The notes beneath the pieces are model-generated. The model worked only from the letters and a program-made list of their open reading frames with translations, was not told where the DNA came from and searched no databases. A stretch of 63,963 nucleotides of DNA, the filler included, from Dugesia japonica (Eukaryota), in NCBI GenBank assembly GCA_001938525.1. It is 6 parts of 6 records of this genome, joined end to end, with 100 filler letters (N's around TTAATTAATTAA, not from the genome) between each part and the next. Parts side by side here need not be neighbours in the genome. Positions count along the whole stretch, not along the records: positions 55,143 to 63,963 come from MQRL01481665.1; 5 more parts are not named here. One strand, 5' to 3'. The translations under genes were made by a program, and so were the position numbers. Positions 3,180 through 63,963 of the stretch are shown here, in pieces; within the stretch, counting starts at the first letter, position 1; the number at the start of each line of letters is the position of its first letter.

Positions 3180-3960
3180 AGATTTGCTACGCATAATGGT
3201 TTTCACCATTAATTTCCCCGTCTCTACACAAGTATTAAAAACTACGGTATACTCCGGCATGATTTCCTTCCATGTATCCAGTAACTTATTTTTCACTATT
3301 AACCCTAATAATTTCAACAGTTTAATGTTATTAACCTCAAGGAAAAAACTATCTGTATTGCTAGCTATTATATTTATCTTCAATTTTCCTTCTTTGCGGT
3401 ATTTTTCAAGCTCTATGTATTAGAGTTGGTACATTCTTAATTTCAATAAACCAAGTACCGTCTGTCTAATGTAACTGAGTAGATCCAAACATATCCCCTC
3501 CTTGTTGAATTGAACAGCTATTACATCATTGTCTATTTTAGTTGTCCTTTTAAACCCTGGTTTTAATGTATAGGCTATCAGATTTTGGCTGAATTACGGA
3601 TCCTAAGGTTAATTCTGTACTTTAAATTTCCCAGGCTTTGTCCATAAAAGATTACATTAAACAAATATTTAACAGTTTGTAGTAGGTCTTCGCCAATTTG
3701 ATTTTACCGTGTGATCTTAGCTCTGTGTTTATATCTATATATTGTTTAAAGATATTATCCTGACTGCATATCAGATCTCTCTATATTTTTGTAATTTTAA
3801 CTCCTAATTCCAAGTACATTTACAGTAGCCTTCAGTGCACTGCAATAATTCTCCTTGGATAAGTGTATCAACAATAATTTTTCACTTTACTATTCTGATG
3901 CTACCGGACGCTCATTCAAATAATCATGGAAGTCATTAAAAATTACAAAAATTACAATAG
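3180..3960 (-). mobile_element. Polinton-type protein-primed DNA polymerase B fragment (pseudogene)
   Basis: DFHDYLNERPVASE, NVIFYGQSLGNLKYRINLR (N..YGK..EN...R motif), LSYIRQTVLGLLKLRMYQL and INIIASNTDSFF..LLDT. Homologous to the fragments at 38.3 kb and 57.0 kb. Confidence 0.8.
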
Positions 3961-10040: not shown

Positions 10041-10349
10041 AAAATATTTGTGTTTTTAAAATCTTTATAGACATGTATTTTTGAAACGAAATTATTTTTA
10101 AAAGATACAATGATATATTTGTATGTATAAACATCCAAAGAATAATCCCTTAAATTTTTTACCCATGTTTAACTAACACCATGTATATTCTATTAAAGTG
10201 TTTATATAAATTTATCTTTTAATGAAGTATGTTTATGTTTTAATGATTTGAGTTACAATACTTTGTTATAATATTATTAGAAATGGCTGTAATTTTGATT
10301 TTTAATAAATATATTGTATTTAAATTAAATCTGATTGTGAAAGTAGTTT

Positions 10350-10980
10350 AACTCGCGACCACGCCGAAAATAATAATGCAGTGACACGCTAATAACAACG
10401 AAAATTAATTTTAGAAGCCTTACCTAAGAAGGCTCAGGAGCTTATCAATTTTAATATAAGAAAATATGATGGCAAAGATGCTTCAAAAGCTACAGCATGG
10501 CTGAAAGAAATCGAAGAATGGCTCATTTTGAATGATTTAAACTTAATGGGAATTTTTAATCTCTTGTTATCATAAGAAGCCGGAGTTTTATAGAAAAGTT
10601 TTAAGTTGGACGGAATAACGAAAGAAGATGCAAAAAATCTATTATGGAAATGATAATGGGGCTTGCAACAGTTAAACGAGAATCAGAAGAGAGATTTGCA
10701 ATGTTTGATGTACGAGTAACAAATTTAGTTAATTGTGTATTGAATTCAGTGTTAAGTCATGACGAAGTAGTAATTGATTAGCTGCCAATGAAAGCCAGGA
10801 ATCAAAATTTACGAGAGACGTTTACAATACCAAATATTAAAGTTGCTGAGATGAGATCTCTGGCAAAAATATATGAAGATAAAAAACATTTCCAACGCGT
10901 TACTGGAAATGAAGATATTTATGTAATACATAGAAAGAGTTATTCAAATGTATTAAAAGGAGACCGTGGATGTTTGGTTT
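10350..10980 (+). mobile_element. Gypsy gag fragment preceded by a PBS-like motif
   Basis: TCGCGACCACG at about 10354 resembles a TGGCGACCACG PBS; followed by IRKYDGKDASKATAWLKEIEEW. Confidence 0.55.
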
Positions 10981-19399: not shown

Positions 19400-19960
19400 C
19401 CTAAAATGTTTTTGCGGCTTTAGAAAGAGAATTGCTCAGCAAATTGGATAGTCCTGAAATACTGATCACAAATCAAGGGAAGCAATTTATCTCATCAGCA
19501 TTTCAAGAAATGTGTAATAAAAGTAGTATCGATCACAGGACTTGGACAGCATATCGTCCACAATGTAATGGAAAAGTTGATCGATTTCACAGATCCCTGA
19601 AAAACGCACTCAGAGCGCACTGCATTAATGCCAAGAAAACTTNNNNNNNNNNNNNNNNNNNNNNNNNNNNNNNNNNNNNNNNNNNNNNNNNNNNNNNNNN
19701 NNNNNNNNNNNNNNNNNNNNNNNNNNNNNNNNNNNNNCTGAAAATTAGCATTAATTTTGACGAACTATCACCAGAAGAAGTAGAAAAAGAAATAAATAAA
19801 ATAAATAAATAAAATAAATATTGTTATTAATAAAAATTAACGATAATCAACATCGACCGAAACGCAAGACTTTCCTTTCTAATGAATTATACGACTGCAA
19901 ACAAGTGTAGTTAAGAAATGAAAACCCATATGAAGGGTCATTCAAAGTAATCGACCAAAG
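19400..19960 (+). mobile_element. Gypsy integrase fragment
   Basis: PEILITNQGKQFISSAF..TAYRPQCNGKVDRFHRSLK..PYEGSFKV. Confidence 0.85.
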
Positions 19961-24989: not shown

Positions 24990-25899
24990 NNNNNNNNNNN
25001 NNNNNNNNNNNNNNNNNNNNNNNNNNNNNNNNNNNNNNNNNNNNNNNNNNNNNNNNNNNNNNNNNNNNNNNNNNNNNNNNNNNNNNNNNNNNCCGAATAT
25101 CTCTAGCATGATCACCATATTAATTGAAGCAACGTTATTATGAGGCTTTTCAATAGTAACTTTTTTAATTAAAACAACTTGATTCCTTCAACATCTTCAA
25201 AACTATCAATGAACATCACATATTACTGTCATGATGTCTTACTTATATTATGTCTTATAATTCTAAAAATTTAATTAATGATTGCCTAAAATGACAAAAG
25301 GTTTTGATTGCTCAAATAATAATTTCAAATATACATTTATTCTTTTCTGGATTTTCATTATGGCTGTTAATAAGTCTTCTAGCAATTACAGTAGCTAATA
25401 ATATTTAAACAAACTATACTTTAATTAAATTTCATTTTAAATAACGAGTTTCAGTTAATTATTTCATTTGAAAATAAAAAATAAAATATTAAATACAGAA
25501 ACCAATTAACAAAAAATTAGATTTATAAAGAAATTCAAATATTAAAGAATATTTGAAAGACTAAATTTAATGTTAAATTATAATATTATTTTTTTAAAAA
25601 TTTAAAAAAATAAAATTAATTAAAAAAATTAAATGTTTTATAATATTACACAATAATAAAAAAATTAAATAACAAAAAATGATAAAAGAAATAATTAATT
25701 GTAAGTATTAACAATAATCAGCTTATCCAGCAAATGGAAATGGTGATTTTTAAATTTCCGAACAGTTGGTTGATTTTCCAATTCATTTTGTTGTTCATAG
25801 TTCATTGTGAAAATGTAAAATAATAAAATAAATTTATACATAATATTCTTTAATAATTAATTTGATTTATTTAAACAATGTATGTATATATTTTGCAAT

Positions 25900-26319
25900 T
25901 TATTTGATTATTTCATGATAATCCAATGACTTTAGTCCGAGAATAACAACTTTTCCACTTGCAAAAACATTGACACATAATGGCTTGTATTTGTTGACTT
26001 GTAATGCAGGAAATAATTCTTATTCGAACCAACAATCTAATACACTGTTCAGCTTAAATAAATGCACTCCTAGTACAAGATCACATGTGACAGTAATTGA
26101 TTGGAAACCATCTATTTGGATATTGACATTTTTGCAAGTGATTTGTTTATCCGAGATTGGTTTTTTGGATCCCATGATGCGACATTTTCCCGATTCAAAA
26201 ACAATTACTGAATAATCTTTAATTTTCACTACACATTGTCTGGATTTTTTCCAGGTATTAAATTGAAGATCTGAAGGTGAATCAATTAGATGAGCTCTGT
26301 AATTATTATTAGATAACAT
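25900..26319 (-). pseudogene. Compact TBP-like protein encoded in the Polinton (about 140 codons, one internal stop)
   Basis: MLSNNNYRAHL..YSVIVFESGKCRIMGSKK..FQSITVTCDL..CWFE*ELFPALQVNKYKPLCVNVFASGKVVILGLKS, compared with TBP LIFSSGKMVCTGAK and YEPELFPGL..KP..LLIFVSGKVVLTGAK. Intronless. Confidence 0.85.
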
Positions 26320-26383: not shown

Positions 26384-27816
26384 ATGGTTTCTGTAAAGTT
26401 TTACTACAAAACAACGCGGTTTTTCAAATAGTTGGTCCTAGTGGAAGCGGCAAAACATTATTTTTTTGCAAGTTACTACAAAGCAAATTGTTTCGAACAA
26501 AATTTCAAACATATTTATTGGCATCAAGGTGGTAGAAGTGAAGCTGCTTGACTAATGGTAAATTTGGCAAGTTTAGAAATATTTCGATAATTGATGGATT
26601 CAATGAGGAGTAACAATAACTGCTTGTCATGGTAATGTAACTGTCATCTTCATCACTAAAAATATTTTCCATCAAGACGGTATGCATCGTACATGTAATT
26701 TTAATTTCCATTATTTGGTTTTATTCGAAAATCGGCGAGATCAAACTGTGGTTGATTATGTTTCTCNTCAAGCATTTCCTCGCAATGAAGAATTTTTATC
26801 AGATGCACTTATTATTACAAAACTACATGGATATTTATTTATTGATTTTGTTGAGGTTTGAATAGTTAAACAAATAAGCAAGCAGTATATACAAGCAAGC
26901 AATGCATACAATACATAATAAACACAGCAGAACAAATTTTCAAATCAATATCGATCGCAAAAACCCTCAAATCAATATCGATCGCAAAATCCTTGAATCA
27001 ATATCGATCCCTGAAAATCAATCAAATTCAAGTGTGTGGACACTATATTTTTTAAGACATTATGTTTGGTGATGTTATATGTTATTTTATTATATATTAT
27101 TTTTATTAATTTAATCCAATGCTGACAGTAAATTATGACATTATATTTTATTTGGATTGGAATTCGATGAAAATTTCGAAAATTTATTAGTTTATGTTAT
27201 TGTATTTGATAACAATAATAATCATGAATATAATTGATGTTTATTCATGTAAATAATTTTAGAAAATTGAATATAATTTATGTTTAACAATAATAATCAT
27301 GTAAATATGTTTGGAAAATGTTTATAAAATAATTGTAAAATTAATGTTAGACACTAGGTCAATGCATGAAGACCTAGTGTGAGTTTTACTATAAATACTG
27401 ATGTATATCAGTTCAGTCTCAGACAAAATTTAATTTAGAGAACNNNNCTCTTTGATTGGCTTCTCTACTTTAAAATTAAACTGAGCGCTATAAGCTGTAG
27501 TATCCTAATTTTGGTGTAAAATAATTATTATAGAAGTACGTATTGAGTTTTATTTGAATAAGGAAATTTACATATATCAGTTATTTATATTTTTGCTTAA
27601 ACAATATTAGTATATAATAGTTGTATTTATATACATACAAAGGGAAAATCAAATCCCCTAAAATCATCATTGGAAATTATATCTTATAGTTTGAAAAGAA
27701 AATTCGAACCACAAAATCTTTTGTTGAGTTAAATACCCAACAATTTTACGCAACAATGTCCTAATGATGAACGAGTAAAAACCGATATATTCAATTCGGA
27801 AGGAATAACGGTTTAA
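26384..27816 (+). pseudogene. Polinton A32/FtsK-like packaging ATPase, interrupted by a solo LTR
   Basis: FQIVGPSGSGKT (Walker A) and HGNVTVIFITKNIFHQ..RTCNFNFHYLVLFENRRD..HGYLFIDF|TQQCPNDERVKTDIF. The frame rejoins once 26849-27746 is removed. Confidence 0.9.
26849..27742. mobile_element. Solo LTR (894 bp)
   Basis: TGTTGAGGT...ACCCAACA ends with a 4-bp TSD ATTT (26845-26848 and 27743-27746). Confidence 0.85.
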
Positions 27817-28069
27817 AACTCATGGGTATAAAGAAAACTAGTACTTAATAAAAAAGAAAACAAAAAATAAATAAATTTTAAAAGGTTTTCATCAAACAAA
27901 AGAGTTGTGGTGCTGGTAATTTGAAACTATTTTCTCGAAGTATTCCATACTTTAAGGCATTTTCAAGAGCTCCATCTAATTCTCGATGGCAAATTAGGCA
28001 CTCAATGCTGGTATTTGTAATGAACGATTTCATTCTTGTTTTGCAACAAATGTTTTTGAGCCGAGCCAA

Positions 28070-28361
28070 TGTTAATCAAAAAAATGGAAAATATTGATTG
28101 AATAAGTATCAATAAGCTCTTGTAGATATGGCAAAAGCAATGAACCTGGGAGCAAAGAAACGAATACTTGAAAGGCATTTTCTTATACAACGTAAAAACA
28201 AGAACAAAGACAAAAAACAAGTTTTTTATGGTAAAAGTGGGAATGGATTTGTTCGAGCTGCAGTTTTACCAATTATACGTTTGTTGGGTAAAGCAACTTC
28301 AACCAGTGCAGTTGGGGCTGCTAAAGAATATGCTACAAAGAAAATTATTGGTTCTGCATAA
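28070..28361 (+). pseudogene. Small basic Polinton core-like protein
   Basis: Basic ORF with KSGNGF followed by an amphipathic segment VLPIIRLLG; lies between the ATPase and the integrase. Confidence 0.5.
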
Positions 28362-28395
28362 AAAATTTAAATTCTTATTGATATTGCAATATAAA

Positions 28396-29456
28396 TGAGT
28401 GTTGCACCTTCTTCTTATATTCCAAACATTTCATTAAATATTCGTTGATGTGTTTTGCGCGATCAAGTTGATGGAACAACTATGATACAATTTAAAGGAT
28501 CCGATTGGATATACCTGTATTTCAAAGCTTGCAAATGCTGCAAGTGTTTCGGTAAAAGAGACGTAAAAATAGTTAGGTAACCAATTATTATATAGTTTGA
28601 ATAGACTAATGCGAAAACGATTTCCAACACATAAATCTATTATTGCTGGTGTTAATAGACTATGACAAATGAATTAGGTGGAAAAGATTCCATATGCAAG
28701 AATAAATAATGATTATAGATATATTTTTACATGTGTTGCTGTATTTGACCAAGTAGCACTTGCAGTTCCAGTAAAACGGAAATCTGGAAAAGATATTCTT
28801 TTGGTTTTGACGGTAATGTTTAAAGATATTCACAAGAAAGCTATTTAAACCAATTTGGTTAAAGAGTTTTACAATACTCAGGTCAAATCATTACTGAAAC
28901 AATATGGAATACTGCACTATTCAATATTTTCTCAGTACAAGGCTAGTACAGTATTGTTGAGCGATTTCATCGAACAAGGTAACAAAAATGGATAAATGCT
29001 TTTCCAAAAATGATTTATGCATACAATCATTCTGAACACAGATGTATTGGAGGACAAAAACCAGTTGATGTTACAGATGATGATGATTATACACAGTATT
29101 TTATCAATAAAAAGCCAAAACCCAAATATAAAATTGGACAACATGTACGGATTTCTCGAATTGGTACTCGGCCATTCATTGAAAACGTTGATAATAATTG
29201 GAGTGATGAAGCTTTTCAAATCTCAAAAATCAACACGAGACAGACCCAACTCATATATGTAATACATGAACAAGATGGTAATATTATTCAAGGCAAATTT
29301 TATGATCAGGAATTGCAAGTATCACCTGAAAAACCAAGTATATATCGAATCAAATCAATTCTCAAAACCAAAGGTCCAGAGCAATTTAAACAATATCTAA
29401 TTGAATGGCATGGCTTTTCAAAGCCTACGTGGACTCAACTATCTCAAATCCAATAA
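28396..29456 (+). pseudogene. Polinton retroviral-like integrase with C-terminal chromodomain
   Basis: NNDYRYIFTCV..AVPVKRKSG..KEFYN..YAYNHSEHRCIG..YKIGQHVRISR..NWSDEAF..GKFYDQELQ..QYLIEWHGF. Confidence 0.92.
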
Positions 29457-30776
29457 TGAATTTCTATATGGATTTGCCAAGCTATAGTTGCCCAAGAACT
29501 TGAACTGATAATAATGCGAGCAAATATTTGGTCGACTATAAGAATACTATCAATTTAAAAGATGACCATTGGGAAGTTGCCATGACGGAATTTGTTTTCA
29601 ATAATTGTTCACAGACTATACTGAAAGGTTCAAATATTGAACATAAAATACAAAAAGTGATGGAAATTGAAGATAAATTTCAATTAAGAGTTGTAAATGG
29701 TAGTCTTCAACTTAATAATACCGTCCCTATCAATACCATCCCTAAATATAACTGGTTTTTTATTTTCCAATGAAAAGAAAGTAGTATTGAAAACAGATTG
29801 TCAAGAAGAAATGGAGTTTAAATCGTTATCAGATGCAGAAAACTTTAGATTCAAATTAATAAATACCAAAAATAAGAAGCCATTAGTTTCAGTTAGTGAA
29901 TCTGATTAGCAGTTGATTCTGGAAAATATACCATCAATATCTTAAAAATTAAAGTTTAATACTATTGATGAAAGAAAGGCTAAAATAAAAGAAATTGAAG
30001 AAAATGTAAATGTTGAGATTAAAAATTGAAAACCTGTTGTTTCTGGATTGAAAATTTAAAAGAATTGCGAATTAATGGTGAAAAGAAAATAATTATCAAA
30101 TCTGATTGCAATATGAGATTAGAGTTTAATTAATTGTTTGATGATCGGTTACTGGGGTTTAACTCACAAAAGATGAAAAACAATCCGATGTATTCATTTA
30201 TCGAATCAGATACTCAAATATTGGATATTGTTAAATTAAAATTTACTGAAATCAAAACCGAAATGAATTATTTTGAATTTGAAAGTGATTTATTGGTTAC
30301 GGATAATCTGGTTACATCATTTATAAAATTATGACATAAAATATTTAAAGAATTTGTGATAGAATCAAAATGTGAACTGGTCATTTGATGAGAGTCTTTT
30401 GCTAGTACTCGGTCTTGGTTCTGCAAAATTCTACAAGTCTACATAACAAGTAAAGGGTTTGCATAAACCGTTATTACATGGTAGTATCCGACAAATATAT
30501 ATTTAATCATCAATAATCGATCCCATTCTGATTGGTGATATACGCGTGCTACTTTTAAGGAGTTTATGGGTTGATAGTAAAAAGCATTTATTTGGCAATG
30601 TTGTACATGTAAGACTTAAAAATTTAATGTATTTACCTGTATCATCATCTTCCATCAACAAAATTAAAGTAAACATACGTGATAATGCAAAAAGATTGAT
30701 TGTATTCCCATATGGATCAAAAACAAGTTTAACTCTACATTTTCGACAATTTTATTACAATTTGATTTATTACTGA
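29456..30776 (+). pseudogene. Polinton minor capsid (penton) protein
   Basis: N-terminal FYMDLPS..NNASKY..L...WEVAMTEF; C-terminal SIIDPILIGDIRVLLLR..YLPV..I.VNIRD..TLHFR. Confidence 0.85.
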
Positions 30777-30777
30777 A

Positions 30778-31118
30778 ATGGTTGATCGAGCTATTATCAC
30801 AATGTATAATTGTCCATAAATGGGTGGAGACTTGCCATATTTTACCTGTAGTCAACAACAACAAGGCGGTGGAAATTGACTGCATAGAATTGGACGTTTT
30901 GCAATTCCAACTTTGCAGAAATTCAGACTTCCAATAGCAAAGTTAGTAGGGCAAGCAGCACTAAAACCTTCGATGATATTATAAACCAGAAGTAGTCATT
31001 TAAAGAATCAATCAAAAACCAAGCGATGAATATGTTGCCAGATGTGAAGAAAAATGCACTTAGTGCATTAAAGAAAGTTGTTGATGGACAGCATGAAAGC
31101 TCTACATTTGAAAAATAA
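30778..31118 (+). pseudogene. Polinton core-like protein with glycine motifs
   Basis: MGGDLPYF..QQGGG..IGRFAIP..TFEK*. The same TIFEK* ending precedes the MCP at 59.3 kb. Confidence 0.7.
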
Positions 31119-31786
31119 CCCAAAAGATTCTATAACTGGGTATGCTGGACAAGTAATTGAATTCAATATTATTGGTTCAGATAATGATTACTTGGATTCG
31201 AATAATACGTTGCTCATTATTAAAATGAAGACTGTGAAACATGATGGGGACGGATTTTGCATCAACTGATACTACCGACATGGTTCTTTCCAATTATTTG
31301 CTTCACTCTCTATTCAAAGAAGCATCATTAACACTAAATAATATAAAGGTTAAAGACACAAATGATGCGTATATGCAAAAGGCGGTAATTTTGGAATGGA
31401 TACAAAAACACTTTTCTTAAAGCCATTGGTTTTCATAAAAAAGAAGACAAAAGAAAAGGTTTTATTAAAAGATCTGCAAACCTAACGCTTTCTGGTGCAC
31501 TTAATGTGGATTTCTTTGATAAACCAAAGTATCTATTGCCGGGAGTCAATATTAAAATTAAATTGACGAGAAATGTGAGTTTGATAATTCACAAATATAC
31601 TTAAGACGTTAAAGAAACAGTTAAGATGAATTCACAACCGTATATTATAGAGGCAAAATTGATAATGGGATGTGCTTTTGCTGATCATTTGGTTATGATT
31701 GAACATCATCAAGGATTGGAACATTGAAATACAATCTACTCTTTCCAGAAAACAAAAATCGTACATTTTCCAATTCCAAAAAACTC
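31119..31786 (+). pseudogene. Polinton major capsid protein, partial (both ends deleted)
   Basis: PKDSI..VIEFNIIGSDNDYLD..T, NYLLHSLFK and GALNVDFFDKPKYLLPGVNIKIKLTRN. Confidence 0.88.
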
Positions 31787-31985
31787 ACATGTTGAGCATT
31801 GAATTGCTATTCATGTCAAACCGAAAATTATTCGTGTATTTGATCTAATGAGTATGTTTTATTCATCATTGCCGGTAACAGAATTGTAGCGTATGCAACA
31901 GCCTGTTGAATACAATCAAATCATGTATCAGAATTCATTGAAATTTTTATGTGGACAATATTGTATCGAATGGCTGAAAACCTAG
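31787..31985 (+). pseudogene. Adenain-like cysteine protease, C-terminal part
   Basis: EH(W>*)IAI...RVFD...YQ...CGQYCI contains the His, Asp, Gln and Cys motifs. Confidence 0.82.
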
Positions 31986-32479
31986 TATAAACAATGTTAA
32001 TGTGATTATCAAAAATATTTAAAATTTCTGTGTTTTAATTGATTATGAAGCCTTTCAGGATAAAATGGTTACTATTTAATCAAATATTTATGTATAATGG
32101 ATGTGGATAATATTCTTCAATAACCGTTTTATTACATGTTTGCCATGACGGAATCAATGGGTAGTTTATCAAAATCTGCTCAGACTGGTGGATTGATAGA
32201 GATTGTAAATTTGATCCAATTCGAATTTCTAATGATGCTTTGTTTTATGTGAATGATCACGTGATTGGAAAGAAAATCAATACTCTCAAAATAATTTTCC
32301 TGAGTCTTCGAATTGTCAATTATAACTTAAATGAACAATTATGTATAATAGATAATATTTCCTGTCCATATTATAATAATGAGGATTATTGTGCATTATA
32401 AAGATCAATACGCCATGGTTCTAATTTTTAATACAAAAATAATGTGAAATTTTTCATGTTAATTAAAACAAAAAAATTA

Positions 32480-38329: not shown

Positions 38330-38970
38330 AAAGAGGCAGGACACAAAGGTGTCATAAATACTTGAAGATTCTATGTTGCTTTTAGACGGATAGTACTATT
38401 AAAAATTAAGTGAATGAAAGAAAGAATGAAATTATGTGAAGAAGAACATTAAACCTTAAGTCTAGAATCTCAAAATATGTATCATATATAGTGACAGGAG
38501 ATACTGACAGGTTTTTCTAGGACGTGAAAGATATTAGATTTGAGAGATTGTTAGAATTGATGGTTCAGGACGAGTTGTTAGACACTTCAAATTATAGTGT
38601 AGAACAGTCGCTTTATAACAACAAGCTTAACTCAGTGGTAGGTAAATTCAAAGACGAAAACAATGAAAAGAAATACAAGGAATTAGTTTTTCTGAGACCG
38701 AGATTTTCTAGTCTTTTTAACGAAAAAAACAGCATGAAGACTTAGATTTTACATTAAAAGATACTGACTTAACACATCACTTGTATTTATCTTGTTACAA
38801 CATTAATAAAAACGGTATCAGTAAATCGATTTAGAATAGGTACAAGAAACCATTAATTTTACAGCTTTATGAAAACAAAAATAACATTGACCAACAACTA
38901 TGTCAAGTGAATTAGGATTAATAAAAATAATACCGTTTCATACAGACATCATAATTTGACCTGCCATAAA
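38330..38970 (+). mobile_element. Polinton pPolB C-terminal fragment
   Basis: IVTGDTDRFF..LLDTSNY..VGKFKDENN..ELVFLRPR. Confidence 0.85.
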
Positions 38971-42339: not shown

Positions 42340-43400
42340 TCAAAAGTAGAAGTTTTTATATAGAAATCTTTATTTTATTCAAAAAAGTATTGACCACTGT
42401 TGTTTATTACCTGCTGCCAGCATTGTGGTAAGCTCAAAGAATTATCCAAATACTCCTTAACATCATCCATTAAATGAAATAGTTGTGTGTTCAGATTATT
42501 TTGAAGCGATTGCAATAGATAGAAATCCAAAGGTGCTAGATATGGCGAGTACGATGGGTGCTGCATTGCTTCACAACCGAGATCCTTTAGTTTGCGTTTG
42601 GTTGCCGGTTTTGTCTTAGTGTTATCCAGGTGAAATACCACATTCTTTTTGTTCGCAAATTCTAGAAGTTTCCTCAACATTGCCTACAATTCATCAATTT
42701 TTCTAGTTGATCACAGTACCTATCTGTATAGTCTGATCAGTTAGAAGCAGCTAGTAATAAATAATCCTTTTCCAATCCCACAAAATGCATAACATCATCT
42801 TCTTGGAATGCAAATCTAGTTTTGCCGTTGTTTGCGATGATACAACTGAATCACATCATGACCGCCAACGCTAAATGTTGTTGTAGACAATCTATTTTCC
42901 GTCTCCGGTTATCATCGGCTTCACAAATGAGTCCAATGAATTCAATTTTAAGAAAGAATCACAAACTGCAATCCAATCAGAAATGTTCTTTTCGGACAAT
43001 TCATTCGGGACGCAAATATCCATCTTTTTTTGTCATCCCAAGATTTGCGTTTTCCAACTATGGAATGTTCAATATCTAAGCTCCGTGCTATTTTTCGTGT
43101 TGAGATATGTCGGTATGCTTTGATTGCGGCCAAGATTTTGTCGTCATCAGTGGTGACAGAGCGACCTTTTGGGCACTATCATGTGGACTGAAATCCTCAG
43201 AACGGAAACTTGCAAACCATCTCTGGCTGGTAAGAGAGTTTATGGCTGAGTCATACACTGAATATTTTATATCGCGCTTCTGCCGCATTTATCTTTATTT
43301 TGTATTAAAAAAATAAGACATGCCTAAAATGCTGCTTTAAATCTTCAGTTTGATTTGCTATGTTCATTCTGAAATTACGAATATTATAAAACATTTTATT
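42340..43400 (-). mobile_element. Decayed near-full-length mariner transposase
   Basis: QRWFASFRSEDFS..D, MLCILWDWKRIIYY, FHLDNTK and HPSYSPYLAPLDFYLLQSLQN. Confidence 0.9.
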
Positions 43401-54420: not shown

Positions 54421-56989
54421 AGTTTATGATAATTAATTACAATTAAAATATAATTTCATAAATTGTGTTTATAGATGGGTGAAAATTTTCCAAACACAAA
54501 TCGTATTCGCCATTGCATGCTGAGTTTAAACACTAATCATATTCCACCGTTTTGATAAAAAATATCAACGATGAAGTTCTTGATGTCCGCAATTGTCTAA
54601 ATGGTTTGATAGGTTTCGTACTGGTAATCTTTGTATAACAAGATGAAAGGGCATCGAGAATCTGTGGTGGCTAATGATGTGTTGAATGTCATTATCAAAA
54701 GAGACCATAAACAAACAGAATAATTTTCTGGAATTATCAAAGAGCAATTCATTTTGAATTCCTGTAAATAAATTTAGAGATCTACCATAAAATTCTTGAT
54801 CGTTAGAGAGTTTCACTAATTGCTAAAAGGAATCCTTTGATTAATAGAAGCATCAAGATAAATAAGCACAAATAAATAAGCATCACGACGAGGCTAGGGC
54901 ACATACTGCAAAAGTGACCCAGTAAAAACTCAAAGCCTTTCAGTGAAAAGTAATACCTCAGTCTCTATATAGTTTAGAAATAGCACCATAGTATTACTAT
55001 TTGTTCAATTTTCTGCAAAACATAATGGTTCACATAATGACGNNNNNNNNNNNNNNNNNNNNNNNNNNNNNNNNNNNNNNNNNNNNTTAATTAATTAANN
55101 NNNNNNNNNNNNNNNNNNNNNNNNNNNNNNNNNNNNNNNNNNCTTGGCATCATCGATTATACACAGTGCGGTGTAATACCCGATACATAGATTTTGTTAT
55201 ATTTGTTCAAATTGTGGCCCATTTGAACTTGCATGGCGTCAGTGAAATTTAGAATCATTGAACCGGAACGAATAATTTTAAAAAATTAATAATATTTATT
55301 AGAGTAAATAATAATTTTGAAAATCTTGCTTTGACAATATAAATAAAGACATTTACATGAATAATTATAAATAATTTAATATGTTTTCAGAATCTTGATT
55401 TAACTTTTTATTATCTTTCTTCTCATATAACTCTGATCTATTAATTCGAATTTTTTCTATATAAATAATAATATTTATACCACAATAATAAAATTAATAA
55501 TATTTATAGTAAGATAATAATATTACATTCTATTTATTTTAATACGTTTCTATAATAGTATGATTTTTCTAATTACGATAAATATTAACATTTTTAATTT
55601 ATAATAATAATGATTTATTTCATATTTCTTTTCTAGTAATTCTTCTCACTTTTATTGAAATTATTTTTAATATAATATTTTTTGTTTTAATTCTACTTCA
55701 TTATTTTATTATATTTTGATCATTAATCCATTATATTTCTATTTCTATATCATTCATATAAATTATAAATAAAAATATATATCCTTGTTCAACTTCTTTG
55801 ATTACTTTCCATTTATTATTTCGCAGTATCATTTATTCGATTATTTATTTAAGCTTTCTTTTTATTTAATGATTCTCATTAGGTTTCTGATCTTTACCAT
55901 TGTGGTTTTGAGCTTTTTAAAATTTTGATTGTTATTTTTTTGAGCATTATTATTTATTCATTTTCCTCGTTTAGTATTTATTTTAGTGATCGATTTTCCT
56001 TGAATTTATTTAATTCTTTTATAATTCTTATTTTCCTTCTTATTAAACTTTTGCTTTGGCGCTTTAGCCTCTTTTATTATCCATAATTCGGAATGTTTTA
56101 TTTGATTCCTTGTCTTTACTGATCATTATTTCTTACTCATTATTTTATTTAATTATTGTTTTATTCTAATAATTAATTATTATAGCACCGTTGTTCTAAT
56201 TACTAATTCATTTTTGCCTATGAGAATCTTGTTTTATTCGGAATTTTTACTTCTTTGTAAAATATGTTTGATTTCTTTAATCACTATTCATTTTCTAGTT
56301 TCAGTTTCAATTTGTTGATTTATTTAATAACATTTATTTTATTATCTACTAATTAATTCATCAATAGTTTAGTAATGTTTATCTTTATTCTGAAGCATTT
56401 CTTTTCGATTTTGATTATAACATCATTTTTAATGCATTTCTGAGTTCTTTATATCTAATTATTTTCTCAGTTTACTCAAATTTGTCTCTTTTCGTTAACT
56501 GGGCAATTTCAGACCAACAATTTTTTAACAGAATATATATATATATATATATATATATTTAATTAATCAACACACAATTTTAAATTTAAAATTAAAATTA
56601 AAATTAAATCAAATCATCTAAATATAAATAAATGACAAAATATAGTGGTGGTTTTTGTATATGAGATCAGGTGAGTTTTTTAAAATATTTAATTATTTTA
56701 TTTTTTAATGCTTTAAGAGAATATATCTGTTAAAATTAAAAATATATTTTAAAATTTTAAATATTTCAAATTGCACTTAAAATTTCTTATTAGTTAATTA
56801 AATGTATTTTACATATTTAAATTCGATATATTTAATATTAATTTTAATATTACAAATTATTAAAATGCAATTAATTAATAATAAAACTGTATATAAAAGG
56901 TAATTCTGTATATCCGAATTTTCCGGTTTTTAAATATTATTATTAATTTTTTATTTATTTAATATTTTAAGAGAATTTATATTTCACAA

Positions 56990-57620
56990 AAATTATTAAA
57001 TAATGCTTTGTATGGAAAATCTGCCGAGAACTTGAAAAAACGTTATACAATACTGAAAGGAAATTTGTAACTTATACTAGTAAAGTTACATTCGAGAAGA
57101 CAATGAAATTAGTAGAAGGGCTCAAAGCTGTTTTACTTGAGAAAGATTGTATAGTTTTGGATAGACTGAGTTACATAGGTCAGGTTGTGTTAGATTTGAG
57201 TAAATTAAGGATGTATAGATTACAGTATGAAGAGTTGGAAGAATATTCCCAGCGATCTCAATGCAAAATCGATATTGTTGCTGGTGTAACAGATAGTTTT
57301 TTTATGTCATGTTCTAGAGTAGACAAAATTAAACTCTTGACTCAAATGAAAATTGATGGTCTGCTGGATACAAGTAATTATCCAAAAGATCATCCTCTCT
57401 ACTTCTGTGATGTAGCCAATAAGATCGGACTGTTCAAAAATGAAGGTCAAGGTGAAGATTATGCTGAATGAATATTCTCTCGACCAATGTGTTACAGGTT
57501 AAAAAAGAAAAATTACACAACATCAATGAAGGCCAAAGGAATCAGTTTGAAGCAAACTGATATTTAGCATGAAAATTATATAAATGTATATTTTGTAAAT
57601 GAAAAAGAAGCATTTAAAGT
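56990..57620 (+). mobile_element. Polinton pPolB C-terminal fragment
   Basis: LNNALYGKSAENLKKR, YIGQVVLDLSKLRMY, IVAGVTDSFF, LDTSNYPKDHPLY..IGLFKNE and KAKGI. Confidence 0.92.
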
Positions 57621-59100
57621 TAACCTTTTGCATAAGGTGATATCCAAAAATCTTCTGCATATCTATTCCTCCTATCAGATCTGATGTTACTCTTTCAGCA
57701 ACTAAGAAAGTAATCTCTTTGCAAATTTCATCAATTATCACTCCGGTTCTAACTTTCCTAACAATTTCAAGTGTACTATTATTTGCACAATGTAATCTTT
57801 TATCACTCATTTCTAAATGCATTTTTCGTAATTTATTAAAACAATTCAAACTCAACGTTAATTCGAGCCCCTGTATCTAATAAACATTCTACTTTATTTC
57901 CTTGAATTGATACCGTAACACTTGGTCTGCCTTGCAATTTATGGTAAGAAATATTTGTTTTCTGTTCTGCTTCAACTGTTCCAACCGATTCAACCTTTCT
58001 TTCATCCGCAAACTTTTCCCCCTGTATACTTTTTTTGTAACTTTTCCTATATCATCCTACTTTTCGACCCCTTGAAGATAATTACTAACTTCATTTAACA
58101 ATGGATGCTCCAACCAACTCCTCTACTGGTGGAGCCCTGCCTTTTAGATACTGCCTTTTGGAATCACTTTCATATGCTTCCTCATATTCATCGTTTGTAC
58201 CGACATCTTCATCTTCAATTGCATGTACTCGATTATATCTGTTTTTTGATCTTTCTGCAGTCATAAATTTCTCACTTGTTCCTTTTGCTTTCACGTTTGT
58301 GTAGCACTCTTCTGCACTATGTCACCATTACCAGATCGTTTAAACCTCACTTCTTGACATAACCTTCTAATATGGCCAACCTTTCTATGGCCAAAACATT
58401 TTGTTGGTTTTTTATTTGGAAAATCTCAAGTTATATGTCCTGCTTTATGACAATTCTAACACTCTATCACATTTTTTGTTGAACAACTTGCTTTATTATG
58501 ACCAATCTTATGACATAACCAACATTCGATATTTTGTTTTTCCTTTCTTTGATCCACAAGTCTATTCACTGTATGATTTGCAGGTTTCTGATAATTTTGA
58601 CGTGTAACTCTCGCGTAACTTCTAACCGCATCAACTTGATCTCTGTTTTTCTCTACTTGATCTACTAACATTAATGTTTCTTCAATTTCTTCTATATTCT
58701 CTCTTTTTCGCAAAATTACTTCTTCTTCAACTTTTTTGTTATCTGAACAATATACTACATCTTTGCAACCATTTTTTCGTCAGTAAAATCTTTATTTGTA
58801 AATAATCCTTTTACTAAATCTTTTAGATTTCTTCCAACAAATCTTCACCTAACAAACAAGAGGCTAATCTCTCCTGTTGTTTCACATGAGTGATGTTTTT
58901 AGCTTCAAAATACAATTCACATCTTTTGATAAATTTCTCAATATCATCTCCTCTGCAGAATATCTTTGGTGATAACCTCTCAGTAATAGAATCGGTATTT
59001 ACCGGTGCCACCTTGTTAGGTAAATCTTCAATTGTTAATTCATTTTGCAAATTAGAATTCATATTGTTAGAAATTTTTTATTTTACAACTATACCTTATA
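57621..59100 (-). mobile_element. Gypsy gag-protease fragment
   Basis: IFCRGDDIEKFIKRCELYF, tandem zinc knuckles (CWLCHKIGHNKASC etc.) and protease CLLDTG..SDLIGGID. Confidence 0.88.
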
Positions 59101-59184: not shown

Positions 59185-59425
59185 ATTATTTCCTCATAAA
59201 CTCTACTTTGATTTGTTTTTCAGAAATTGAATTCATAGGAAAGACATCTTCGAAACTACCACTTTTAATTACAGCTTGTAGAGATGGTCGATCAAAAATA
59301 CATAATTCAGTTTTCCCGCAAATCATTTTTCAAATATTGTTCCATGACCTCGCATTCGTTTGTTTATACGTGATTCTTGAGGTTTGTTTCGTTTTCTATG
59401 AGTTTGTGGTGTTTTGACTTGAATT
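59185..59425 (-). pseudogene. Polinton core-protein C-terminus plus major capsid N-terminus (ATG at 59326)
   Basis: ..RINKRMRGHGTIFEK* overlaps MICGKTELCIFDRPSLQAVIKSGSFEDVFPMNSISEKQIKVEF (C.KSEL.LF..P..Q motif). Confidence 0.8.
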
Positions 59426-59450: not shown

Positions 59451-62400
59451 AGGTAGATAGTGGCGCCATGGCACACATTTTTTAAAGCACAATTTGGGGA
59501 GGAAACTGCTTACGATTGTGCTATAATTTTTTAGGTAGTTTTTTCTAAGATTTTTGGGATCAAAAATGTTTTATCGGATCAGTTTTTATGATCCTGTGAG
59601 TGTGTATTTTCGATTTTTACAATTTGCGTGTGTTTGGGTTGCTAAGAAGGTTAATTTAAAGTAGATCAAGTTGAGTTTGTGTGTGGGTGTATATGTGTGT
59701 GACAGTAATAATTTTTTGAAATTATATTTTGGTTAAAAATGCTGTATTTTGCTTAAAATGATGAATTAAAAGTAATGATATTTTTGTAAAAATGATGTAT
59801 TTTTGAGTATTTTTGGAAATTTTGAGTGTGAAGGGTTGTTTTTCATATTTTTTGAAGGAAGAAGATTGGAGTCTTGATATTTTTGGAGAGAAAATGTTTT
59901 GGGGGAAATATAAAAGAAATATTTTTTGGCGGGAAATTTAAAAATTTATTTATTTAAATTATCTTTTGAGAAGACTTTATATTTATGTATGAGATGGAAC
60001 AGTCTTGATATTTTGCAAGGGATGAGGGGAGTCTCTATATTTTGCATGTTATGGCAGTCTTGATATAATTACAAGATATCGGACAGTCTTGATATTTTGT
60101 AAGATATTATTACAAGATATCGGGCAGTCTTGATAGTATTACAAGATATCGGACAGTCTTGATATTATTACAAGATATCGGACAGTCTTGATATTATTAC
60201 AAGATATCGGNNNNNNNNNNNNNNNNNNNNNNNNNNNNNNNNNNNNNNNNNNNNNNNNNNNNNNNNNNNNNNNNNNNNNNNNNNNNNNNNNNNNNNNNNN
60301 NNNNNNNNNNNNNNNNNNNNNNNNNNNCAGTCTTGATATTATTACAAGATATCGGACAGTCTTGATATTATTACAAGATATCGGGCAGTCTTGATATTAT
60401 TACAAGATATCGGGCAGTCTTGATATTATTACAAGAAAAGGCTCTATATTTAGCATAGGATGGGGCAGTCTAAAATGCCCAGGCATGTGATTTTCAGTGT
60501 ATGTGTGTTACAGCTGTGTTGCATTTGAGTTGCATACCTATTGCATTCATTAAAAATTTCTTTAAAAAATCAAAAAAAATTCACAGGCATGTGATTTTCA
60601 GTAAATGTGTTGCAGCTGTGTTGCATCTGAGTTGCTTGCCTATTGCATTTTTAAAAAAAAATACAAAATAGCGGCAATGTTGAGTTTAAAAAATTTCTTT
60701 TTGGTGAGAAATTTAAAAAATATTATTAAAAATTCTCAGGCGCGTGATTTTCGGTATATGTGTGTTGCATCTGAGTTGCATCTGAGTTGCATACCTATNG
60801 CATTTATTAAAAATTTATTTTAAAAAAATTAATAAAAATTCGAAGGCACGTGTTGCTATATTGCATTCATATTGCATCCCTTTTGCACTCATTATTTAAA
60901 AACATTGGGTAGTCTTTATATTTTGTAATTTACGGGGCCGTCTGATATTATTACAAGATATTCGACCGTCTTTATAAGTTCCGGGCAGTCTAAAATTTAA
61001 TAAACATGATAAAATATATCTATCAAAAAAATTCTTTGTGATATTTATATGATAAAATATATCTATCAAAAAACTTTAAAGAGAGGAGTCTTTTGGATTT
61101 TTACATGATAAAACATTCAAATGAAAACCTTTCTTTATAAGATGATAAAAACAGATTTTTTTGCAAAGAAAACATATTAACTAGGTAATTTTCTATAAAA
61201 AACATATTAGCGATGCAAATTTTAATAGAAATTCTCATTAGCGATGCTATTTTTAATACGAAATCTCATTAGCGATGTAATTTGTAATAATAAATCTCAT
61301 TACCAATGCAATGTTTAATATAATATCATAAGCAATGAAATTTTTAAAAGAAAATCTCATTAGCGATGTTATTTGTAATAAAAAACATATTAGTCATTTA
61401 ATTTTTCTATAAAAAAAACATATTAGCTGAGAATATTTCTTTACAAAATGATAAAAACAAAGAACTTTATTCATAAAATCATAAATTCATGAAACCTATC
61501 CATATATAACTAATGTGACTATCTAAAATCTTATTTATATTATTTACATAGCAACCATGTATTATAGGGTTTATGAATATATTATTTACATAGTTACCTT
61601 GTATTATTTACAAAGCAACCATGAAATATAAGGCTTATGAGAGTATTATTTGCTTAGTTATCATGTAATATTTACATAAAAACCGTTTAATTTATGGCTT
61701 TTGTGTGTATTATTTACATAGTAACCGTGTATTATTGGGTTTATGAGTGTGGGAGATTTTTTTATAAATAACTTAAAATTACTGTATAAATACCTTGCAA
61801 GTAAGTATTTCTTATGAGTGTATAGGGTTTATGAGTCTATTATTTACACAGAAACCGTGTATTATAAAGATTATAAGGATTATGAGTGTATTATCTTTAC
61901 AGATATTCTGTATTATAGGGTTTATGAGTGTATTATTTGTATAGCAAACATGAAATATAATTTTTATGAAATATAAGACTTATGAGGAAATTATTTACAT
62001 AGTAAACGTGTAATATAAGGCTTATGAAGGTACTTTTTACATAGTAACCATGTAATATAGGGTTTATGAGTGAAATNTTTGTATATTTGCATTGTATTAT
62101 TTACTTAACAACCGTGTAGTGTATGTTCTATGAGTTTATAGAGTTTATTAGTGTAGAAACAATTTTATATACAACTGAAAATTACTGTATTATAAGAAAA
62201 TTACATTATAAGTAAATATTTGTATGTATGTATAGGGTTTTTTGAGAGAAAAGGATTTTTTTAGTGTGGATCGTTTTCGTATATAACTTTAAATTTCTGT
62301 AGAAGTACTTTATAAGTAAATATCTTTTATGAAAAGATATATGTAAATATATTGATGAGTGAATGGAGATTTTGAGTGCATAGGGCTTATGAGTGTGGGA

Positions 62401-62700
62401 CATTTTCATATATAACTGAAATTACTATATAAATACCTTATAGTAAATAGTTTAATAACTGTATTATTTACATAGCAACCGTGTAATATAATGCTTATGA
62501 AGGTATTTTTACATAGTAACCATGTAATATAGGATTTATGACTATAATATTTGTATATTTACATTGTATTATTTACTTAGCAACTATGTAATATAGGTTT
62601 TATGAGTGCATTATTTACACAACAACCATGTATTATTTTCATATAAACTGTGTAATATAAGTCTTATGAGAGTAATCTTTACATAAAATAATTTGATTAT
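59451..62700. repeat. Composite tandem-repeat region (candidate Polinton terminal arm)
   Basis: 29-bp CAGTCTTGATATTATTACAAGATATCGG(A/G) array (60050-60440); TGTGTTGCATCTGAGTTGCAT blocks (60480-60880); about 32-bp AAATCTCATTAGCGATG units (61170-61430); about 42-bp TATTATTTACATAGTAACCATGTATTATAGGGTTTATGAGTG units (61540-62680). Confidence 0.85.
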
Positions 62701-62821
62701 CATTTCTTTATCTTGGTATTTTTAAATTTATTAATAATTTATTACATTTTATATATTTGTTTTAACGATTCAATTAAATTAAATTCATCAAAACCCCAAT
62801 GTTCCTCTTAATTCATTAATT

Positions 62822-63066
62822 ATGATTACAAATATTAATAACAGAGGTGAAGTGTCGCTAACTAACAAAGAAAATGAGCTTTCCTATAGGCAAACCATGT
62901 AAATTTAAAGTCAAAAGTGACAAATATATAATTATATTCTTCAGATGAGGAAAATATAGAATAATGAGTTGTAAGAAACCATTAAAACGGCATGATTTGA
63001 ACCCCCCTATGATATAAAAAATTTTCAATTACAATCACTAATAATTTGTAACAAATTTGGGAGTTT
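62822..63066 (+). pseudogene. Second, diverged TBP-like gene (N-terminal half, two frameshifts, one stop)
   Basis: MITNINNRGEV..MSFPIGKPCKFKVKSDKYIILFFR*GKYRIMSCKKPL..YDIKNFQLQSLII aligns with 26319-26080 (MLSNNNYRAHL..YSVIVFESGKCRIMGSKKPI..IDGFQSITV). Confidence 0.75.
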
Positions 63067-63330
63067 CAATAAATATGTATAAATTCCATCGGTGATTTTA
63101 CTAAATCTCTTTGTATTTTTTCAGAAGTAGTTGGGTTTTCAATTTTATTCAAATCATGAATTAAGTTGACATCAGCTAAATGTCTATCTCTTAAATCTTC
63201 TGATTTATAAGATAAATAATATTTCAAAGCTGCTTCATCAACTCTATTAATTGGTTTTTCTACAGGTTTTGGATTATTATTTTCATCTAGTCTTAAATCT
63301 AATCTTGTTCCTGGTCCTGAGTAGTAAAAA
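63066..63330 (-). pseudogene. Parvovirus VP1-type phospholipase A2 domain (adintovirus-type PLA2)
   Basis: YYSGPGTRL..PINRVDEAALK(HD>YY)LSY...RHLAD: the Ca-binding YxGPG loop is retained and the catalytic HD is mutated. Confidence 0.88.
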
Positions 63331-63489
63331 GGGAGGAGTCTAGGACAGAGGGCGAGTGTTGCCATGGCAATCAGTAGAGTAGGTCAAGGTCATGAGAAAG
63401 TAGGTCAAGATCGTTGTTATGTACTTTGAAAGTAGGTCAAGGTTATTGGTAACTATAGTAACGAGCTATTTATTTTTATTTAGATTTAT

Positions 63490-63963
63490 TTTAAAGTTAA
63501 TTATGCACACTGCTGTGCAGTTACCGCTTTGTGTCGACATGTTGCCGACGGCGTCACTGGATTGTTTAAGAGCAAGGTTTCAACAAGAATGAAAGAGAAG
63601 GAGACACAAAAAGAACCAAAAAATAAATTACAATATTTAAAAAAATTATCACAGAAATTTGTCTCATTGTCAGAGGGAAATATACTCCTCAGCCATTGCG
63701 TCCCAATCGATGCTGACTTCTTCTTCTGATAGGGTAGAATGAATGATTGGGAATTGAGCCAGAAGTTCTTCATTTTCTTTGACTGCTATCTCGTGTAGAT
63801 CCAGCAGCTCTGAGTAACTGGGATGTCTATCGACTGCTGTGCAGGTGTTGTGAGTTCTCCAAGTGTTCTGGCTCCAATTGATATTCGATGAGATGCACTT
63901 AAATTTGAGGCTAGTGATTGATTTATCTGGAATGCCGATTGTTTTTAGAATTTGGTTGTTTTC
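63490..63963 (-). mobile_element. RLE-type non-LTR retrotransposon C-terminus and 3' UTR, related to 22480-23489
   Basis: NNQILKTIGI..KFKCISSNINWSQNTWRTHNT..DRHPSYSELL, compared with NDHILRSLNV..KVKCISSNIQ*CSDTWRIHNT..DLHPSFSELL. Confidence 0.85.

Follow-up and report, generated by a model that had tools for sequence, protein, structure and literature searches.

A decayed TBP-like gene in Dugesia japonica

The stretch of Dugesia japonica DNA analysed here (63,963 nt, hereafter the window) is composed of six contigs separated by N-TTAATTAATTAA-N. On contig 6, the + strand carries the 5′ remnant of a gene for a shortened TBP-like protein, which we term mini-TBP. This remnant (copy 2) extends from an ATG at 62822 to approximately 63087-63090 and corresponds to family positions 1 to about 90 of 151. 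Three frameshifts (near 62858-62864, 62997-63007 and 63041-63050) divide it into four pieces in two frames, the last of which runs from 63051 to about 63090, and there is one in-frame TGA at 62946-62948. The reading breaks off at about family position 88-92, so that nothing beyond the first repeat and the beginning of the second is left. The C-terminal 60 or so codons are gone from the window, and + strand frames 3′ of 63086 score below 0 bits.

The family HMM was built from 69 natural homologues (alignment A1 less the other copy present in the window). When used to search the whole window, it matches the main frame of copy 2 with an iE of 3e-12 and a score of 45.1 bits, compared with a maximum of 10.5 bits for 300 shuffles in six frames. 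With X placed at the breaks, the score rises to 61.4 bits over family positions 2-87 of 151. The stretch is also matched by 77 of 99 homologues (tblastn, E ≤ 10), the best being P0018 (E 1.8e-21), to which copy 2 is 67% identical over 87 columns; its single-frame pieces yield no Pfam matches. Copy 2 is a decayed, 3′-truncated pseudogene of a TBP-like family of about 150 amino acids.

The original prediction had read 62822-63330 as a TBP-like gene missing from the ORF track. Its quoted peptide pieces lie on the + strand where it placed them (one residue given as Leu is Ile), no + strand ORF of at least 80 amino acids spans the region, and the stretch matches the mini-TBP family far above chance. 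The prediction counted two frameshifts where there are three plus the TGA, overlooked the fourth piece, and took in 63087-63330, which is instead a PLA2 remnant.

Two copies from different element lineages

The second mini-TBP gene in the window (copy 1; 25870-26319, - strand) is a full-length pseudogene with two in-frame stops and a Pfam TBP score of 43.3 bits (cut-off 22.9). It lies on contig 3, as the separators confirm, and is oriented divergently to the ATPase gene of a decayed Polinton whose ATPase, integrase, penton-like, capsid and protease remnants occupy 26398-31991. This ATPase gene is interrupted near its 3′ end by about 0.9 kb of unrelated DNA (26855-27742). A scan of the six contigs of the window with the family HMM returned these two copies only. 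A candidate third copy at 42973-43158 was rejected, as it was a weak match to one partial query and was missed by the family HMM.

Both copies match the TBP family, and their proteins are only 26% identical to each other, with copy 1 ranking 127th of 228 matches. Their DNAs are as different as had been claimed, the best blastn match between them having an E of 0.17. In trees, copy 2 and P0018 form a sister pair (support 99/96), copy 1 clusters with P0003 and P0004 (100/96), and a joint clade of the two copies is rejected (p-AU 4e-49 in a 30-row subset). As judged from these trees, copies 1 and 2 are fossils of different element lineages, which bears out the earlier view of copy 2 as an independent second copy. 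The derived features thought to link the two copies are family-wide; for example, the Ser of the second repeat occurs in 66 of 69 homologues. Profile significance and tree placement both put copy 2 inside the Polinton mini-TBP family.

Transposon debris around copy 2

From left to right, contig 6 carries a polymerase stub (+), a Gypsy-like fragment, a capsid stub (-), tandem repeats and the TBP stub (+), followed by a PLA2 stub (-), GC-richer foreign DNA and the end of a non-LTR ORF. The contig is a heap of nested transposon debris. The polymerase stub (56990-57618, +) comes from a Polinton DNA polymerase gene like those of the family loci L005 and L018 (48-56% identity, E ~1e-50), and none of the polymerases of loci L057, L058 and L059 matches it at 1e-4. 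An AT-rich stretch bounded by GT...AG just upstream (56670-56970) suggests a spliceosomal intron. Between the polymerase and capsid stubs sits a decayed Gypsy-like gag/protease fragment (57650-59100, -), recognized from blastn matches to other copies in the window and from translated motifs that we take to be zinc-knuckle and protease-like. The capsid stub (59195-59389, -; HMM iE 1.1e-11) comprises the 5′ end of a Polinton major capsid gene, starting at 59326, and the end of the gene upstream of it. It is 41-55% identical to the capsids of mini-TBP elements, has a blastn match to L005, and carries TATAAACA about 36-40 nt ahead of its ATG. Elsewhere in the window, on other contigs, there are further pieces of this polymerase type and one integrase-like piece (3219-3946, -; 38488-38961, +; 19405-19629, +).

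The capsid and TBP stubs are separated by a block of tandem repeats with 29, 102, 31 and 42/64 bp units (59972-62714). The repeats that the original prediction described as an arm are real, and the role of an arm is putative. Contig 6 contains no inverted copy of the array, and neither the remaining contigs of the window nor 60 related loci match it. The 42/64-bp repeats (61480-62700) hold five of the six motifs in the window that resemble what we take to be RFX half-sites, and two palindromes that we presume to be X-box-like lie with three AGGTCA repeats just right of the PLA2 stub (63358-63462).

ATPase, integrase, penton-like and protease genes gave no match at iE < 0.05 in contig 6, and the only core Polinton genes there are the polymerase and capsid stubs, 3.4-6 kb from copy 2. 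Because these stubs are nearest to L005/L018, a Polinton origin of copy 2 is likely, with the intact gene order gone; this probable link draws on the distant stubs and on the nesting of copy 2 among linked loci, and not on its own subclade, no member of which comes with a known gene context.

The junction with PLA2

The parvovirus-type PLA2 remnant (63087-63329, -) covers profile positions 32-115 of 130, is cut at both ends and lacks the near-invariant catalytic pair. Its PF08398 match (E 3.9e-4) falls under the curated cut-off, and it has 48 homologues (best E 1.4e-27). The TBP and PLA2 homologies stop within a few codons of each other, tail to tail, at about 63087. On the PLA2 side, 23 of the 48 homologue alignments end at 63099 and the profile match ends at 63081. 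An apparent overlap of the coding frames at 63012-63092 was discarded, as it came from a single BLAST extension; with composition adjustment turned off, the match to PLA2 stops at 63099. At its other end, PLA2 has lost its 5′ part to foreign DNA (63330-63963, -), which is marked by a step to higher GC content and by short repeats. At about 63700-63963 (-) this DNA carries the C-terminal part of a non-LTR retrotransposon-like ORF, which shares 49% identity (E 1.2e-19) with a copy at ~22.8-23.0 kb.

An AGTAGT sequence at 63320-63325, where the PLA2 5′ end breaks off, overlaps PLA2-homologous codons. AGTAGT is a common end motif of Mavericks (PMC8097293), and the sequence at 63320 is possibly the end of a nested Maverick. 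Polinton/Maverick elements are marked by terminal inverted repeats, by ends with (AGT)2 or (AG)3 and by a 6-bp target duplication. Contig 6 has no arm-like inverted repeat, and the window ends 640 nt past AGTAGT.

The original prediction had taken PLA2 as a convergent neighbour of the TBP gene. The two are indeed adjacent; however, both genes are cut, and their convergent order occurs in none of 56 family loci, many of which are short. PLA2 is present in one of the 56, L055, where the TBP gene beside it is of a longer form and has the same orientation, and PLA2 lies beside a helix-less mini-TBP in none of 55. We consider that the TBP-PLA2 join is probably secondary and arose by later deletion or recombination; a misassembly may also lie behind the junction at about 63087. 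An alternative, which bears on the junction only, is that TBP and PLA2 were convergent neighbours from the outset, at the arm of a separate type of Polinton, and that a small deletion across their 3′ ends has shortened both. One deletion between convergent genes would yield such a tail-to-tail join, the L055 element holds PLA2 and a TBP-family gene together, and L006, L018 and L035 have tandem repeats on the upstream side of their TBP genes. In addition to the counts above, this alternative is made unlikely by the replacement of the PLA2 5′ end, likewise, by foreign DNA, and by PMC8502044, which gives PLA2X as typical for virion modules of the Alpha kind, whereas the polymerases of mini-TBP elements are Beta-like.

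The mini-TBP family is conserved and predicted to lack first-lobe helices

When copy 1, with X at both stops, was used as the query, 99 relatives were found among 110 candidates. A search with the profile yields 63 clusters (50% identity) at E ≤ 1e-30; larger counts take in cellular TBPs. Two further members, from L018 and L057, exceed the Pfam TBP cut-off of 22.9 bits with 63.1 and 40.6 bits respectively. No locus was confirmed when IMG/VR was scanned with the alignments of TBP, capsid, ATPase and PLA2, and a TBP scan of prokaryote genomes gave none.

Among 37 intact genes, the median dN/dS is 0.27 and the maximum 0.45 (111 non-independent pairs, pS 0.03-0.7). By this measure the family is under purifying selection. 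The proposal that the gene is old and has been maintained in the lineage holds because of such family-wide evidence beyond the locus, namely selection, trees and Polinton linkage, and not because the two copies have different neighbours, which was the argument first offered.

An AlphaFold2 model of the family, computed from alignment A1 with copy 1 (X at stops) and the 69 homologues, has a pLDDT of 95.4. In this model residues 1-80 are helix-free and the second lobe is complete; alignment with human TBP over 147 residues gives Z 13.1 and an rmsd of 2.8 Å. The prediction for mini-TBP is thus a TBP saddle with neither helix in its first lobe. Three Phe residues of the intercalating type are present in 69 of 69 homologues, and the stirrup Glu residues in 64 and 69 of 69. 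The DNA face is changed throughout the family, with Asn to Ser in the second repeat (66/69) and Leu to Asn (69/69). A branch with 100/99 support, based on five outgroup rows, splits the family from cellular TBPs.

Association of the family with Polintons

A metagenome scan provided 56 family loci, whose neighbouring genes were identified with HMMs built from these loci themselves. A core Polinton gene is present in 27, only shared accessory genes in 24 and neither in five, each of which is shorter than 1.6 kb; among loci of at least 4 kb, 9 of 11 carry a core gene. Among the neighbouring genes are those for an A32-type ATPase, an rve integrase, a C5 protease, a DNA polymerase and a double jelly-roll capsid protein whose model (pLDDT 65) matches the fold of the PBCV-1 capsid with an E of 1.1e-14. 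All five are found in L057, all except the protease in L018, and all except a called protease ORF in L005. A polymerase ORF is present in only 3 of the 56 loci. On this gene content, the mini-TBP family is Polinton-borne. The polymerases of mini-TBP elements have no PF03175 match, which makes them Beta-like by the definition in PMC8502044.

The position of the TBP gene tracks the TBP tree, in which the group with TBP after C3 represents one change (support 86). TBP distances correlate with those of the ATPase (Mantel rho 0.63, p 0.003, n = 13), C3 (rho 0.45) and C1 (rho 0.57). A comparison of the TBP and capsid trees had been suggested as a check, and distances show no tracking for the capsid (rho -0.03, n = 8) or the integrase (0.13, n = 7), results that are negative or underpowered.

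Four further loci (L057-L060) were fetched by ATPase alone. L057 encodes an intact mini-TBP (10246-10695; E 1.8e-51) and L059 a full-length TBP, and TBP is absent from L058 and L060 within their lengths of 7.9 and 3.0 kb. All four lie in bacterial metagenome bins and are probably stray contigs of eukaryotic viruses that contaminate these bins. Some loci carry AT-rich GT...AG stretches before the C1 gene (L002, L013, L018, L021, L024 and L035), which suggest spliceosomal introns, and others carry a gene for an LRR protein with a hydrophobic N-terminus after TBP and C11 (L023:1918-3327, L025, L033, L039 and L046).

A conserved box upstream of virion genes

We counted motifs within 120 nt upstream of gene starts after de-duplicating these regions at 80% identity. 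ATAAACA occurs ahead of the ATPase (11/12), capsid (7/7), pX-like (6/6), penton-like (6/7) and integrase (6/7) genes, where 0.2-0.5 occurrences are expected for each late gene class. It also precedes the starts of C4 (6/9) and C3 (5/9) and is found at none of five protease starts, of which three have TATAAAC. By comparison, ATAAACA precedes only 1 of 37 TBP genes, and when 37 late regions are pooled, a single one has ATAAAC on the reverse strand. The distance to the ATG is 28-41 nt for most sites, and the motif is about ninefold enriched near starts (29/3611 versus 60/66544). Since it is found in intergenic DNA and, within upstream genes, in two frames, the constraint acts on DNA. The motif also precedes the ATPase gene beside copy 1 and the capsid stub of contig 6, and the late box lies ahead of the LRR protein gene in 5 of 5 cases. 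Upstream of TBP genes, TATA (21/37, 12.4 expected) and CCAAT (13/37, 6.4 expected) are modestly enriched.

The motif was chosen after inspection of upstream regions in loci related by descent, and only L057-L059 were held out. In these loci ATAAAC precedes 7 of 7 late genes in L057, which encodes a mini-TBP, 1 of 7 in L059, which encodes a full-length TBP, and 0 of 5 in L058. Motif and mini-TBP are confounded with lineage, because the sample includes no TBP-less Polinton of the same lineage.

A possible late-gene transcription factor

The presence of the motif ahead of virion and packaging genes, compared with only 1 of 37 TBP genes, suggests that mini-TBP is likely to be a late-gene factor. 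We favour a model, to which we give somewhat better than even credence, in which copy 2 is a dead mini-TBP, intact mini-TBPs bind the TATAAACA box of their own element and bring host RNA polymerase II to the genes for capsid and packaging, and PLA2 was joined later. The TBP gene itself would be expressed early, from an ordinary CCAAT/TATA promoter. In TBP, it is the first lobe that touches the 3′ half of the box. TFIIA, TAF1, Mot1 and Brf1 bind through the helices of this lobe, and TFIIB binds the stirrup of the second. The C of TATAAACA presumably lies in the 3′ half of the box, on the first-lobe side, and mini-TBP may read this variant box with the odd C in the half that faces its rebuilt first lobe. 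The acidic second-lobe stirrup may have been kept for TFIIB, and loss of the helices gripped by the other partners could have made mini-TBP a private late factor. By analogy, such a scheme of an early factor and a late box fits that of beta- and gamma-herpesviruses.

Alternatively, host factors could read the late box, either host TBP or a Forkhead protein (ATAAACA is a Forkhead-type site too). Mini-TBP would then serve as a decoy, either sequestering TFIIB or obstructing host TATA boxes. The lineage confounding noted above leaves room for this explanation, and the pattern of conservation, with the TFIIB-side stirrup invariant and the other partner surfaces gone, would suit a decoy. Moreover, a crystal structure exists of cellular TBP on a C(-25) TATA variant (PDB 1qn3, by its title), so host TBP may manage a box of the TATAAACA type. 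We nevertheless regard host factors as a rather unlikely answer: the residues of the DNA face are conserved yet altered family-wide, which fits a new specificity, and the motif is absent before most late genes where TBP is full-length (L059).

Mini-TBP might instead have a non-transcriptional role and bind the DNA of the element to replicate it, to package it or to protect its ends. Rolling-circle initiators have the same fold (Z 5.7), and the TBP gene is often near the ATPase gene or a contig end. This role is improbable for a family that joins TBPs by sequence and fold and keeps the stirrup, and for a motif located mostly 28-41 nt before start codons. Finally, that copy 2 is a pseudogene of a host TBP paralogue or a chance match in AT-rich DNA is scarcely credible, even though its single-frame pieces lack Pfam matches and some sources label family members plainly as TBP, since the shuffle control refutes chance, and the identity to P0018 and the branch that parts the family from cellular TBPs (five outgroup rows only) stand against a host origin.

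If mini-TBP is indeed a selected, dedicated transcription factor with a matching late box, it would be direct evidence of timed expression of virion genes. A viral life cycle of present-day animal Polintons is putative, and virions are unobserved for vertebrate Mavericks (PMC8097293). A natural TBP without first-lobe helices, if confirmed, would show which surfaces are dispensable for transcription start. The copy 2 locus itself is a fossil only, attesting to a second sublineage in the same genome and not to a new gene arrangement.

Comparison with known TBP systems

Giant viruses (Nucleocytoviricota) have TBP homologues that share the fold of mini-TBP (BFVD matches with E 2e-6 to 1e-3) at 9-18% identity. 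Giant viruses supply their own RNA polymerase, and none was seen in the family loci. Canonical TBP (PF00352; PDB 7egb_P, 1ytb and 1cdw) has in common with mini-TBP the two-lobed saddle (Z 12-13), the three Phe residues of the intercalating type, the acidic stirrup, and a second repeat that passes the Pfam cut-off in copy 1 and in intact mini-TBPs. Mini-TBP differs in its length (about 150 versus 180 amino acids), its changed DNA face, its mobile-element origin and its predicted lack of helices in the first lobe, where canonical TBP has two convex-face helices per repeat.

The vTBPs of beta- and gamma-herpesviruses (EBV BcRF1, KSHV ORF24 and HCMV UL87) pair with TATT late boxes (PMC4893493). 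The likeness to Polintons, a viral TBP mimic and a non-canonical box before structural genes, may be analogy only. As described there, herpesvirus vTBPs are large and part of a six-member viral complex, whereas mini-TBP consists of the shortened core alone and its box is TATAAACA; the match of the mini-TBP model to BcRF1 is weak (Foldseek E 0.02, rank 34).

A Polinton-related element with a TBP-like gene is already on record, in that the legend of Fig. 5 in Starrett et al. (2021; PMC8502044, preprint 10.1101/697771) applies the label 'TBP' to MELD viruses with adintovirus-like PolB. The legend states neither family, structure, promoter nor function, and its section covers non-animal datasets. 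Beyond this label we found no account of the family or the box in the openly accessible text that the literature search covered. Text searches returned no mention of TATA or TBP in the searchable portions of PMC11161782, PMC10748475, PMC8097293, PMC11131425 and 10.64898/2026.06.19.733378. The PLA2 remnant of contig 6 shares the parvovirus-type PF08398 domain with adintovirus PLA2X and differs from it in having both ends cut, the catalytic pair missing and the C-terminus, where PLA2X has its pX-like domain, cut off. Its closest relatives (P0237, P0239 and P0242) extend only a few residues beyond the matched region, and a pX-like tail is not visible in them.

Long forms and the history of TBP in Polintons

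The helix-bearing long forms constitute one clade (97/87), which includes L051, where the neighbouring gene is a Polinton-type ATPase. In an alignment of 149 columns, with a small outgroup and an unfixed root, the mini and long forms together are split by a 100/99 branch from three cellular TBPs, P0233 and the L059 protein. Mini forms are monophyletic in only 22% of bootstrap trees. The long, viral-type clade (L051:1-537, L055:747-1235, P0167, P0175, P0181 and others) appears from sequence to keep the first-lobe helices, and its members share derived motifs.

The TBP of L059 (11568-12122, -) is a two-repeat protein of 185 amino acids that scores 124.7 bits with Pfam and lies on the cellular side of the tree; a protein search gives no other relative. 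The polymerase of L059 has a PF03175 match and is hence of the Alpha type, and most late genes of this element lack the TATAAACA box. The occurrence of this TBP in an element with a PF03175 polymerase suggests a second TBP capture. As a tentative broader scenario, which we hold somewhat short of an even prospect, Beta-type Polintons would run a two-step programme in the style of herpesviruses, in which a TBP stripped of helices acts early and turns on virion genes through a private TATAAACA box; TBP would have been trimmed stepwise within Polintons, which have both a helix-bearing long clade beside PLA2 (L051/L055) and the mini form; and TBP would have entered Polintons a second time in an Alpha-type lineage (L059), where it is full-length and the TATA boxes are ordinary. 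In L055, the long TBP gene lies between the PLA2 gene and the ATPase gene, and the latter has an ATAAAC box.
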